Positions 59,062 to 63,513 are shown, numbered from the stretch's first letter. The stretch: 64,000 bases of DNA from Bacilli bacterium (GCA_024408295.1 JAKSVE010000004.1:396-64395); one strand, 5' to 3'. Numbers and translations: made by a program. The notes: generated by a model not told the origin, from the letters alone.

Positions 59062-59154
59062 GGGTGCGCAAACTTTTTCGAAGGGTACGCAGTTTTACAA
59101 GCAAAGGTGCGTAAGATTTTGATAGGGGTGGGTGAAAAATCCGTGAGGGTGCGT
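59062..59154 (+). repeat. Iteron-like array A: five GGGTGCGT-type motifs at 21-22-bp spacing
   Basis: GGGTGCGC 59062, GGGTACGC 59083, AGGTGCGT 59105, GGGTGGGT 59126 and GGGTGCGT 59147, all read directly from the sequence. Confidence 0.7.
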
Positions 59155-59195
59155 AATTGTTTCAATATAGGTAATCACTGCCAAAACTAAAAAGT

Positions 59196-59230
59196 AGACA
59201 TTTTGTGCTAGTTCGCAAGATGTCTTTTTG
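59196..59230. terminator. Hairpin element copy 2 (bidirectional-terminator-like)
   Basis: AGACATTTTGTG-ctagtt-CGCAAGATGTCT followed by TTTT, with an A-run on the 5' side. A 17-nt stretch (GTAGACATTTTGTGCTA) is identical to the tRNA terminator. Confidence 0.65.
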
Positions 59231-59267
59231 TACGCCAAAGGATTTGAACGATGTTATCCTGCGGATT

Positions 59268-59294
59268 CTATATTTTTCGCAGAATAAGCGCCTC
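59268..59294 (-). pseudogene. Orphan 3'-terminal fragment (8 codons + stop) of the TetR-like gene
   Basis: The reverse complement reads GAG GCG CTT ATT CTG CGA AAA ATA TAG (EALILRKI*), identical to the end of the CDS at 63487-63513. Homology stops abruptly at 59294. Confidence 0.6.
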
Positions 59295-59389
59295 GGTTTT
59301 TTCTGAACAGTTATAACGGCATTTGTTTTTACACAAAAAATACATAGAAATCTTGGCTGTTCTTCTTGTATAAAAAGCAGTAATTGCTG

Positions 59390-61707: not shown

Positions 61708-61713
61708 AGAAAC

Positions 61714-63246
61714 ATGAAGCAAAGAACCAAAAGATTTAAGGTCATTCGTGCCGTCGTTCCAATTCTGTCTATAACCGCCTTCCTATTGGCGGGTTGCGGA
61801 CACGAAGAAAAGCAGTCTTCCGACGCTTTCGACGATCAAAACGTCGACGTTCAGTTTTTGAGGGAAAACGACGCCCTGTTCTTCGAGGGATACGCTTTCG
61901 CCGCAAGCGAGAGGAACCACGTGTTCAGGATCGAGGACGGCAAGATAACGCGCCATGCCAGTTATCCTCTGGTCGACTTCGAGCCTTCTCGCTACGATGA
62001 CCTGACCGGCAAAGGGGTCGATGACGTCATCAAAGCGGTCGGGATTCCATCCTATCTCGGGGAGATTGGGATGAAATCGCTCGACTATTCTAAATCGGAC
62101 GGAAGGCTTAGACGCTTGAGTTTTTCTGAGAAGGGCGGGGAATTGGCCGTCGAGAGCGTCGAGACGTTCGTCAAGTCACACGACAAGAGCCTTAAGGTTT
62201 TCTTTGACAAGAACGCCTCCCCGATCTCCAAGGAAAGAGTGAGGAACCTCAGGGTGGGGATGTGCGCCGACGAGGTCCTGGAGACCCTCGGCGGAAAGAT
62301 CAACGGAGGATTCAAAGGGGAGGATTTCTACCATTGGCAGTTCACCACCTCGGAAGGGGTTCTCGCTCATCTCATCGTCTCGTATACCGACAGCATCGGC
62401 TGCAGTCACGTTAGTGTGAGCGAAAGCGACAGGTGCACAATGGAATCGTGGTACCTCTTCGGTGCCTACACCGATGACGGCGAGATAAAGATTGAGAACA
62501 GGCTGGGCAACGAGAAGCCGGTGTCCGACGCGAGCGACAACAGATTCCAGGCATCGAAGAACATCACGGTCGATTACCTCAGAGACAACGGATGCTTCTT
62601 CTACGGCGATTACGTCTTTGCGTCAGACTCAAAGAACCACGTCTTCAAAATAGAGGCCGGGGAGATAGTCGACCATCGCTCTTTCGACAAGATATCGTAT
62701 CCTCGCAACCCTCTGGGTCTTTTCGGCTCGGTTAAGGGGATGGCTCTTGATGATACTTTCGGGATCGTGGGAATACCGAGCTTCGTGACGAAGCAAGGCT
62801 CCGCTTCTTTTGATTACGTCCTTCCGAACGGGTATCTGATGTCGTGCGCCCTAGAGACAATCGACGGCGAAATTCATATCAAGAATTACGGAGGCAATTC
62901 GTTCACATGGTCGTACACGGATTGCTGGAAGGACGCCGGTAATACATCCGTCTCCAAAGAAAAGGTCGGTCTCATAAGACCTGGAATGTGTGTCGCGGAG
63001 GTTACCGAGCTTCTGGGCAAGGCGACGTCGATAAGGTACGCGGATGAAGGGAAGACGTCCTATGCGTTCTCGTATAATCTTGATGACGGGTCGTCCAAGG
63101 ATGTCAATTTCAAGATAGGGCAGATAGATGGTGGATGCTGCCATTCGGTGAGATACGCCGATGTTGGCACATGTCTGGATGATATAAGCAGCGCCGCGAA
63201 CAATCTGGTATTGAGCAATTGCTTTTACTTGTATGTCGCTGATTGA
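61714..63246 (+). CDS. Lipoprotein built from two tandem repeats of roughly 200 aa each
   Basis: Lipobox FLLAGCGHE. Repeat 1 has FLRENDALFFEGYAFAASERNHVFRIEDG ... SKERVRNLRVGMCADEVLETLG. Repeat 2 has YLRDNGCFFYGDYVFASDSKNHVFKIEAG ... SKEKVGLIRPGMCVAEVTELLG. Confidence 0.6.
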   Translation: MKQRTKRFKVIRAVVPILSITAFLLAGCGHEEKQSSDAFDDQNVDVQFLRENDALFFEGYAFAASERNHVFRIEDGKITRHASYPLVDFEPSRYDDLTGKGVDDVIKAVGIPSYLGEIGMKSLDYSKSDGRLRRLSFSEKGGELAVESVETFVKSHDKSLKVFFDKNASPISKERVRNLRVGMCADEVLETLGGKINGGFKGEDFYHWQFTTSEGVLAHLIVSYTDSIGCSHVSVSESDRCTMESWYLFGAYTDDGEIKIENRLGNEKPVSDASDNRFQASKNITVDYLRDNGCFFYGDYVFASDSKNHVFKIEAGEIVDHRSFDKISYPRNPLGLFGSVKGMALDDTFGIVGIPSFVTKQGSASFDYVLPNGYLMSCALETIDGEIHIKNYGGNSFTWSYTDCWKDAGNTSVSKEKVGLIRPGMCVAEVTELLGKATSIRYADEGKTSYAFSYNLDDGSSKDVNFKIGQIDGGCCHSVRYADVGTCLDDISSAANNLVLSNCFYLYVAD

Positions 63247-63304
63247 GGCGGGAAGCACAAAAGCGAAGAGTTGCATATCCGAGATGGAGGAATGACGCGG
63301 CCTT

Positions 63305-63373
63305 GGGCGCGTCAAATCGTTAAGAGGGTGCGTAAACATAACGAAGGGTGCGTGATTTCGCCTAGGGGTGCAT
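63305..63373 (+). repeat. Iteron-like array B: four GGGTGCGT-type motifs at 20-21-bp spacing
   Basis: GGGCGCGT 63305, GGGTGCGT 63326, GGGTGCGT 63346 and GGGTGCAT 63366. Confidence 0.7.
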
Positions 63374-63513
63374 AATTGTATTAAAATAGGTAATCATTGC
63401 CAAAACTAAAAAGTAGACATTTTGTGCTAGTTCGCAAGATGTCTTTTTGTATGCCAAAGGATTAGAACGATGTTATCCTGCGGATTCTATATTTTTCGCA
63501 GAATAAGCGCCTC
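63366..63513 (+). repeat. 148-nt direct repeat, right copy
   Basis: See the left copy. The offset between copies is 4219 nt. Confidence 0.85.
63415..63449. terminator. Hairpin element copy 3; likely terminator of the TetR-like gene (minus) and of the lipoprotein gene (plus)
   Basis: Hairpin sequence identical to copy 2, with T-runs on both strands. Confidence 0.65.

Follow-up and report, generated by a model that had tools for sequence, protein, structure and literature searches.

Paired 148-nucleotide repeats in a Bacilli genome mark the junctions of what is probably a tRNA-anchored tandem array of integrase-less cassette-like units with phage-type ends

How did a peptidase/lipoprotein cassette come to lie between two nearly identical direct repeats, one of which carries the end of a gene that is otherwise missing? 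The question is posed by a 64,000-nucleotide (nt) stretch of DNA from Bacilli bacterium (GCA_024408295.1, JAKSVE010000004.1:396-64395; the whole stretch is called the window below), in which positions 59147-59294 and 63366-63513 align without gaps at 141 of 148 nt (7 mismatches, about 95% identity by MAFFT and a repeat finder; E = 2e-64 to 4e-64 by BLAST within the window). The right copy contains the 3' end of a TetR-family gene on the minus strand, with the stop codon at 63487-63489 and the last eight codons (EALILRKI) at 63490-63513, and these 27 nt recur in the left copy, at 59268-59294, unattached to any open reading frame (ORF). The final 48 nt of both copies are free of mismatches, and homology between the copies stops at 59294 and 63513. 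An earlier note on this DNA had described most of these features, as well as GC-richer codons in the enclosed genes than in the operon on their left, and our measurements confirm them (GC 49-52% versus 36-38%). It had proposed that the repeats are a recombination footprint around an acquired segment and not an ancestral arrangement, a view supported by relatives in which TetR stands without the cassette (contigs L003 and L004) and in which the gene relic and the leader behind it stand elsewhere (L005, L007, L008). Our analysis points to a more specific answer, namely that the region to the right of a tRNA-Ala gene is probably a tandem array of integrase-less, cassette-like integrative units, of which the cassette is one, with ends of the type carried by Heliusvirales-like phages.

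The two copies of the repeat diverge unevenly, with five mismatches in the first 37 nt and two in the remaining 111 nt (5/37 versus 2/111, Fisher p = 0.011), indicating that the repeat is a composite and not a single block of homology. Judging from its sequence, the right end of one unit (37 nt) here abuts the left end of its successor (111 nt), and every 148-nt copy spans a single junction between neighboring units, which we designate A, B and C from left to right. The 37-nt terminal block, designated T37, ends in CCA and occupies 59147-59183 at the end of unit A (T37-L, GGGTGCGTAATTGTTTCAATATAGGTAATCACTGCCA) and 63366-63402 at the end of unit B (T37-R), both on the plus strand. The left border of the repeat is gradual, since degenerate 21-nt iterons run on upstream of both copies on the same strand, starting at 59062, 59083, 59105 and 59126 in unit A (GGGTGCGTAA-like; array 59062-59146, nhmmer match 59103-59183) and at 63305, 63326 and 63346 in unit B (array 63305-63365, nhmmer match 63325-63402). 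Their spacing is 20-22 nt, and the 148-nt copies themselves open with the last motif of the series, at 59147 and 63366. Directly after T37-L comes the 111-nt left-end module of unit B (59184-59294, plus strand), which is identical at 109 of 111 positions to that of unit C (63403-63513, plus strand), unit B having C at 59233 and T at 59245 where the two differ; units B and C belong to the same left-end family. The unit B module is made up of a 10-nt opening, N10 (AAACTAAAAA, 59184-59193), a rho-independent terminator hairpin (59196-59225) with its T-run, an imperfect palindrome (GCCAAAGGAT..ATCCTGCGG) and the TetR relic (59268-59294, stop plus eight codons in minus sense). The unit C module has the same N10, hairpin and palindrome, and the TetR 3' end overlaps it at 63487-63513.

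T37 recurs far beyond this locus. A search pattern with degenerate positions, derived from the opening 31 nt of the repeat, matched 85 metagenome contigs (JGI/ENA; anaerobic digesters, sludge and human gut) and three IMG/VR viral contigs, and in every matched contig T37 formed the last unit of an array of two to five iterons of 21 nt each (21-22 nt). Conservation is nearly complete through ...AATCAAAGCCA, and information content is about zero from the base after ..AAGCCA. A profile search added further copies, every one in direct orientation, and successive blocks lay 1.0-5.6 kb apart, a range that includes the 4219 nt from T37 to T37 in the window; minus-strand copies numbered zero in 93 loci. 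The nearest ORF upstream of T37 was co-oriented with it in 43 of 44 cases, and a terminator-like hairpin lay within 75 nt to its right in 78% of flanks, compared to 15% of random windows. In the major T37 family the left end is comparably long and again built of an N10, a hairpin and a palindrome (GGCAGAAAGG..CCTATCCGCC), and such a conserved left-end module explains why homology between the two copies in the window runs for 111 nt past T37 and then stops. Rfam searches of the repeat, the iterons, the window and 19 loci returned nothing beyond tRNA and tmRNA (transfer-messenger RNA). The repeat was also compared with phage and plasmid collections, and blastn of 59040-59300 matched neither GenBank phages nor PLSDB plasmids.

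We clustered the 70 nt after each CCA and compared side by side those right-flank clusters that had several left partners. Ten right-hand modules had more than one left partner, and they join directly after CCA in every case. The module TATTGAATGCATAGGTTTGATACA... follows tmRNA (L048), tRNA-Gly (L052) and at least five different T37 units; CTAATAACGTAAG... follows tmRNA (L025) and T37 (L059, L043); and TATTAGCAC... follows tRNA-Ser (L093) and T37 (L084, L091). The module of the window, AAACTAAAAA-GTAGACATTTTGTGC... with close N10 variants, is found behind tRNA-Gly (L006), tRNA-Glu (L007), tRNA-Ala (window) and T37 (the left and right copies of the window, L003, L008), and also behind a recombinase relic ending CTCCACCA (L008). 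Wherever a locus holds a tRNA or tmRNA gene, that gene shares the strand of the T37 blocks and stands to their left (11/11 loci), and nothing past CCA is duplicated at the junctions. Joins fixed directly after CCA are the signature of site-specific exchange at one nucleotide position. From this pattern of sequences, the tRNA/tmRNA 3' end and the T37 block appear to behave as equivalent left partners, and we infer that the crossovers in the window fell inside the 148 nt, at CCA (59183/59184 and 63402/63403), and not at the edges of the repeat. Such swapping across the family is left unexplained by simple tandem duplication, one of the two mechanisms first proposed for the locus. The other, Campbell-type integration of a shared segment of about 150 bp, holds as far as the direct repeats at both borders are concerned, but it does not accommodate a repeat made of two abutting modules, a crossover at CCA or a segment that encodes no integrase: the ORFs in 59184-63402 are only of peptidase and lipoprotein size.

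The array in the window is anchored at a tRNA-Ala(cgc) gene (50440-50515, plus strand; ARAGORN and Rfam), the sole tRNA of the window, whose encoded 3' CCA (50513-50515) forms the first junction. Unit A (50516-59183) begins there with a left end at 50516-50562 (plus strand) that consists of 10 nt (TATAAGAAAT), a terminator hairpin (GTAGACATTTTGTGC...GGATGTCT) and a T-run, and its hairpin is 87.5% identical over 40 nt to the one within the 148-nt repeat. Its cargo (50692-58901, plus strand) encodes proteins of 213 amino acids (aa) and 207 aa (HTH_3), a 535-aa putative cysteine peptidase and two fused ABC-ATPase/FtsX permeases (913 and 849 aa), followed by the iterons and T37-L. Unit B (59184-63402, 4219 nt) comes next, and then unit C. 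On this reading, which goes beyond the earlier note, the cassette is one unit of a tRNA-Ala-anchored array, and the operon on its left is itself acquired and closes with the same kind of end. Composition tells the same story. Core genes of the window have a GC content of 42-46%, from which units A and B depart in opposite directions, with 36-38% in the unit A cargo and 49-52% in the enclosed genes of unit B (62-67% at third codon positions, GC3); the TetR gene has 46% GC and 61% GC3. Of the discontinuities expected at the two repeat borders, the step at about 59.3 kb is clear and the one at the right repeat is weak, because TetR itself is GC-richer.

No serine recombinase is detected in the window by tblastn, in agreement with the earlier report of a window lacking an integrase, and a candidate source of the activity emerges from the other T37 loci. 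In their 234 non-redundant ORFs, no family recurs as often as large serine recombinase domains. For each half of these ORFs the 25 families that recur most were listed, and tyrosine integrases (Phage_integrase) are in neither list. Among the 19 loci whose left flank reaches at least 6 kb, about 10 carry a recombinase ORF on the T37 strand, as full-length pairs in about five and as fragments otherwise, and these ORFs lie nearly always to the left of the T37 block. The typical order is a helix-turn-helix/zinc protein (phrog_2308), a recombinase of about 435 aa and a recombinase of about 527 aa, all on the T37 strand and 3-10 kb to the left of the block. In a second set of loci, ascertained through the longer recombinase, the core TTGTAT[CT]A[AT]AA was counted 17 times on the strand of the recombinase genes and never on the opposite one, and the arrays have differing iterons (GGGTACGAA, GGGTGCTAA, GGTGTACGCA, ACAATTTACCGAAAGG, ATGCGTCCATT) with the same core. 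Four recombinase-bearing elements (L009, L011, L044, L056) end in the same T37 block and iterons. Scored against NCBIfam, the recombinases of T37 loci reach 138 and 173 bits for CcrB (cut-off 900) and 86-87 bits for CcrA (cut-off 700); they are generic large serine recombinases.

The best annotated relative is PV036447.1, Anaeroplasmataceae phage NatCom_34063 of Ca. Heliusvirales, annotated as a complete genome. Its record starts with CACCA|TTAGAGTACATT-hairpin-TTTTTTT and ends with two recombinase genes, a terminator, three GGGGTGTCG iterons and ...CTTGTATTAAAATAGTTGTGTAAATACA; the terminal block reads TTGTATTAAAA...CA, and the record closes with ...TTGTATTAAAATAGTTGTGTAAATACA. The recombinase gene ends at 63081, and the iterons and core reach the end of the record at 63197. 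PV036454.1 has the same arrangement of recombinases, iterons and core, so that in both phages a site lies beside the recombinase gene and at the prophage border, as expected of the phage attachment site (attP) of a large serine recombinase. At 165-250 of PV036447.1 (locus L154), about 220 nt inside the left end, there is an exact inverted copy of the first right-end iteron (GTGTTAGAACGATTACTTCCGACACCCC). The left end also holds two partial iteron copies (TAGAACGATTAC), and these inverted and partial copies, about 170-245 nt in, resemble arm-type sites on both arms. By comparison with these records, the block in the window would be a phage-type right end (P arm) of this integration system and the N10-hairpin module the matching left end. 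The paper on the Heliusvirales lineage (PMC11283538) does not mention integrase, tRNA or attachment sites, and literature searches, whether for the sequence motifs or for the concept, did not turn up an account of such sites; the attachment-site anatomy of Ca. Heliusvirales appears to be undescribed in the literature that was searched.

These observations can be assembled into a mechanism. The sequences themselves show how the units are built, that junctions are swapped exactly at CCA, which strand rules hold, that tRNA/tmRNA genes serve as anchors and that the recombinase pair co-occurs with the blocks. Each unit starts right after a CCA with a left end of about 110 nt (10 nt, rho-independent terminator hairpin, imperfect palindrome), continues with co-oriented cargo and finishes with two to five 21-nt iterons and a T37 block ending in CCA. 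The enzymatic steps are proposed: a recombinase pair supplied in trans would exchange strands at or within CCA, such that any left partner, whether a tRNA/tmRNA 3' end or a T37 block, could be joined to any unit left end. An inserted unit would regenerate a docking site at its far end, allowing the array to grow and shuffle, and recombination between the two junctions of unit B (59183/59184 and 63402/63403) would excise it as a 4219-bp circle, if the unit is still mobile at present. The iterons would serve as accessory protein-binding sites and confer the specificity of each family. The TetR gene of unit C extends into the left-end module, and in unit B the cargo would have been replaced with only the 27 nt inside the module surviving, which would account both for a gene end that has no gene and for the point, 59294, at which homology breaks off.

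The orphan gene end had at first been read as part of the integration footprint. The independent contig L008, from another metagenome-assembled genome (MAG), contains units B and C in the order of the window at 87-95% identity, behind the recombinase relic mentioned above; its unit C comprises TetR (minus strand), a 198-aa gene (plus strand), iterons and a T37 block, and two further units follow. The stretch spanning the TetR relic, the leader and the start of the 760-aa peptidase gene of unit B aligns at 88-92% to L005, L007 and L008, although the 760-aa gene is mostly deleted in L005 and L008. In L005 and L007 the relic and leader stand behind a different gene pair, and in L003 and L004 TetR lies intact with no cassette beside it. 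Because the junction of relic and leader is kept in L005, L007 and L008, the relic is old and travels with the left-end module. Sequence comparison therefore favors reading the orphan end as an old conserved part of that module and not as a fresh scar. We also considered an origin of the relic by TetR deletion, and BLAST found no homology between the unit B leader (59295-59424, plus strand, with a promoter-like site at 59390-59418 by promoter scan) and TetR-upstream regions.

Several points weigh against this account. The absence of a recombinase from the window makes mobilization of its units in trans a conjecture. L009, L011, L044 and L056 have a common left flank (holin genes) and not a common right flank, and their own left boundary could consequently not be fixed. 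T37-L may be a site in decay, given that its iterons are degenerate and that it departs from the core motif (TTGTTTCAATA). For large serine recombinases, attachment sites of about 40-50 bp suffice and the pairing of attP with attB is strict; iteron arrays and promiscuous partners would be unusual for such enzymes. A fixed CCA junction fits a short crossover, but the conserved iteron arrays are larger than the canonical minimal serine-recombinase site of about 50 bp, which has a 2-bp crossover and lacks accessory repeats. The two-recombinase CcrAB system, reported to tolerate several partner combinations, offers a precedent for relaxed pairing (PMC3146451). Finally, the 98% identity of the 111-nt modules allows plain homologous recombination or gene conversion between them.

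This last point is the core of the strongest rival, in which the arrangement arose by RecA-dependent processes only, through Campbell insertion of a circle with about 150 bp in common with the TetR-proximal region, or through unequal crossing-over or tandem duplication followed by cargo replacement. The left ends of units B and C are 98.2% identical in the window (109/111), compared to 86.7% in L008 and about 91% across genomes, which suggests recent exchange or gene conversion between the copies. The two modules are indeed closer to each other than to their L008 counterparts (91%), and the window lacks a recombinase. Homologous recombination through the near-identical 111 nt is a viable route for the excision of unit B in this genome. 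As the whole explanation we consider it unlikely, since it leaves unexplained why the opening block of the repeat is conserved in 88 unrelated contigs and stops exactly at CCA, why the same modules are joined to tRNAs, tmRNAs and T37 at the identical nucleotide, and why the two parts of the repeat have diverged unequally.

We judge it very unlikely that the element is a transcribed RNA, with iterons and T37 forming a shared 3' untranslated region or small RNA that has a tRNA-like CCA end and is followed by a terminator, present twice only because the two operons have this 3' module in common. The block does invariably have a co-oriented gene on one side and a terminator on the other, its CCA end resembles that of a tRNA, and the 148-nt stretch folds somewhat better than shuffled sequences (z = -2.6). 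However, Rfam gives no match, conservation is of primary sequence, and no fold linking the block to the terminator was found, the window lacking the downstream complement with which T37 could pair in the main family. Moreover, the iterons differ between arrays, each being repeated within its own, and one has an exact inverted copy in the other arm of PV036447.1, which is the behavior of protein-binding DNA sites, and the swapping of junctions at CCA is a DNA-level event. An antiterminator was rejected for the window: in the main family TTGTATCAAA of T37 pairs with TTTGATACAA in the terminator that follows, but the hairpin of the window has no such complement. Mimicry of a tRNA 3' half by T37 is speculation, as TCAAA and CCA match the T-loop and CCA in register only weakly.

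A somewhat poorer candidate still is a DDE transposon (Tn7-, Mu- or IS21-like), whose right end would be the block, the terminal CA being preceded by several subterminal transposase-binding repeats. The terminal CA, the two to five repeats of 21-22 nt and the IS21 genes near the block in L013 and L053 speak for it, but no inverted partner end occurs in 93 loci, there is no target-site duplication past the shared CCA, and no transposase recurs, IS21 being present in about two loci at variable positions. Least credible is a chimeric MAG join through the shared repeat, because the MAG source, the position of TetR at the very end of the contig and the breaking of independent Logan contigs inside repeats are set against the independent MAG contig L008, which shows the same succession of relic, leader, cassette, T37, hairpin and TetR at 87-95% identity, and against L001 and L002, which are 100% identical up to the repeat, as a true repeat would give.

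Is a tandem array of integrase-less units without precedent? Judged by analogy, the array resembles three known arrangements, namely the accretion arrays of cis-mobilizable elements (CIMEs), the ssrA islands of Dehalococcoides and composites of the staphylococcal cassette chromosome (SCC). CIMEs and tandemly accreted integrative elements such as ICESt1 and ICESt3 in Streptococcus thermophilus (for the concept see PMC3146451) depend on tyrosine integrases, and their direct repeats are copies of the 3' end of the target gene. Like CIMEs, the present units are integrase-less cargo between attachment-type sites of an autonomous relative, stacked at its target, with mobilization in trans presumed: their sites are common to L009, L011, L044, L056 and the PV036447.1 architecture, the target is a tRNA or tmRNA gene, and junctions are exact to one nucleotide. 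Unlike in CIMEs, the repeated site is element-borne (iterons and T37), only CCA is common with the target, and a pair of large serine recombinases is the candidate for catalysis. In SCCmec and composite SCC elements, CcrA and CcrB act at the 3' end of rlmH, tandem cassettes sometimes lack recombinases, short direct repeats mark the boundaries, and the distal site is regenerated. Two co-encoded large serine recombinases and tandem cassettes are thus found in both cases, whereas here the targets are CCA ends of tRNA/tmRNA genes and the CcrA/CcrB cut-offs are far from reached. To our knowledge, SCC elements have no iterons.

The Dehalococcoides islands are arranged in tandem downstream of tmRNA and have a serine-recombinase pair (DsiB, about 540 aa, and DsiA) as presumed integrase; some lack an integration module, they are bounded by 20-bp direct repeats of the ssrA 3' end, and ssrA is their single target gene (McMurdie et al. 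2011, PMC3146451). The present system differs in having many tRNAs as well as tmRNA as targets, no duplicated target fragment, iterons and a host of a different phylum. With the Ca. Heliusvirales phages (PMC11283538; PV036447.1, PV036454.1) it has in common a recombinase pair with iterons plus TTGTATCAAAA..CA directly downstream, and record ends of the form CACCA|hairpin and ...CA|, but the units in the window carry no phage genes. Tycheposons of Prochlorococcus, of which 910 of 937 rely on tyrosine recombinases and which have partial tRNA repeats of about 40 nt as flanks (bioRxiv 10.1101/2020.12.28.424599), are likewise tRNA/tmRNA-anchored islands of cargo-carrying integrative elements with tandem junctions and heterogeneous populations; they differ in being cyanobacterial and in their recombinases. 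Integrons provide a further parallel in their co-oriented, mostly promoter-less cassettes that each end in a recombination site, their shuffled order and a platform bearing the recombinase. In contrast to integrons, there is no IntI tyrosine recombinase and no attC hairpin here; each site consists of iterons and a linear core, and tRNA ends or phage genomes hold the arrays.

The cargo of the window can now be described. Unit B encodes a 760-aa secreted putative cysteine peptidase (59425-61707, plus strand; C39-like, C10-like or Mycoplasma-type; GC 49%, GC3 62%) and a 510-aa lipoprotein (61714-63246, plus strand; lipobox LLAGC and a weak BamE-like stretch; GC 52%, GC3 67%). Both the 760-aa protein and the 535-aa protein of unit A (51941-53548) match the Mycoplasma-type putative cysteine peptidase NF045837 below threshold, suggesting that two differently composed units carry related cargo. 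Exact-protein look-ups for the 760-aa protein and its 99% relative P0004 matched no contig that would give a full-length context. The TetR-family regulator (63487-64000, minus strand; TetR_C_8 domain) is 171 aa in full, with its start just past the end of the window (the source contig, at about 64.6 kb, is hardly longer), and is 100% identical in the window to P0001, a 171-aa protein of a 'Bacilli bacterium' MAG. An allele in L004 (2109-2483) has an internal deletion that reduces it to 124 aa compared to 171 and keeps the last codons and the downstream context; the regulator appears to be decaying in some lineages. On the other side of the array, the ORF beside tRNA-Ala (48947-50191, minus strand) encodes a Y-family (DinB/ImpB-type) DNA polymerase, and it was rejected on this ground as an integrase adjoining the tRNA; core chromosome (SecA, UvrB, FolD, M29 peptidase) reaches up to the tRNA.

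Some further observations were made in the related loci. Recurrent cargo includes AAA_14/DUF4143 ATPases, AbiEii-like AAA_21 proteins, Fic, STAND NTPases, DNA methylases and RNase III-like proteins, as well as DUF6273 and Listeria-Bacteroides-repeat surface proteins, a mix rich in defense-like and surface functions. In L103 (16427-16700), a recombinase pair is followed by three end blocks in a row that are separated by almost no cargo and have one iteron type each (GGGTGCGTA, GGGTGCTAA and GGGTACGAA), as though docking sites of differing specificity had been stacked. In L056 (4404-4640), L057 (2779-3010) and L018 (upstream of 4230), some 150-200 nt of conserved sequence (..GCTCCGAATCAGCACTAAGTATTCGTGTGCTCGGC..GTACGCAAGTTTAAGGCAATTAAAC..) separate the gene for the longer recombinase from the iterons; this stretch has a terminator at its end, is not matched by Rfam and could be a structured RNA. 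The ORF that immediately precedes the iterons in L009 (7110-7448 as oriented) encodes a bAvd-like four-helix-bundle protein (PF22296, below cut-off), a type of accessory protein known from diversity-generating retroelements. Although filed as 'uncultured Bacteroidales' MAGs, L005 (CAYLYP010000136.1) and L008 (CALCUH010000145.1) match this Bacilli locus at 87-95% identity and are probably mis-binned mobile DNA. Contigs very often end within the iteron/T37 block or the hairpin (e.g. L001, L002, L010, L014, L016, L066 and L075), making the element a systematic assembly breaker, which is probably why the source contig stops just beyond TetR. The T37 block can accordingly be used in annotation as a precise marker of island boundaries in MAGs and as a frequent cause of contig breaks.

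More tentatively, and with rather less confidence than we place in the array itself, the loci may together represent an undescribed integron-like cassette system of AT-rich Bacillota (Bacilli, Anaeroplasma-like bacteria and, via Heliusvirales phages, Clostridia). In such a system a phage-borne serine recombinase pair would dock at the 3'-CCA of many tRNA/tmRNA genes and equally at element-borne iterons plus a TTGTATCAAAA..CCA core, cargo-only units of 1-9 kb (defense-like, surface, transporter and peptidase functions) would be stacked and shuffled between tRNA loci and phage genomes, and the variable iterons would be specificity-determining accessory sites. We know of no such iterons for serine integrases. 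The unusual features are the element-borne surrogate of a tRNA end and the association of iteron arrays with serine recombinases. Serine integrases are valued in genome engineering for their simple sites, and a family with many targets and co-varying iteron 'address labels' would be of mechanistic and practical interest. If the array model proposed above holds, very widespread gut phages (Ca. Heliusvirales) and their relatives would insert into tRNA/tmRNA genes at the terminal CCA, by means of two serine recombinases and a site of unusual complexity, and the same sites would organize chromosomal arrays of integrase-less cargo cassettes.

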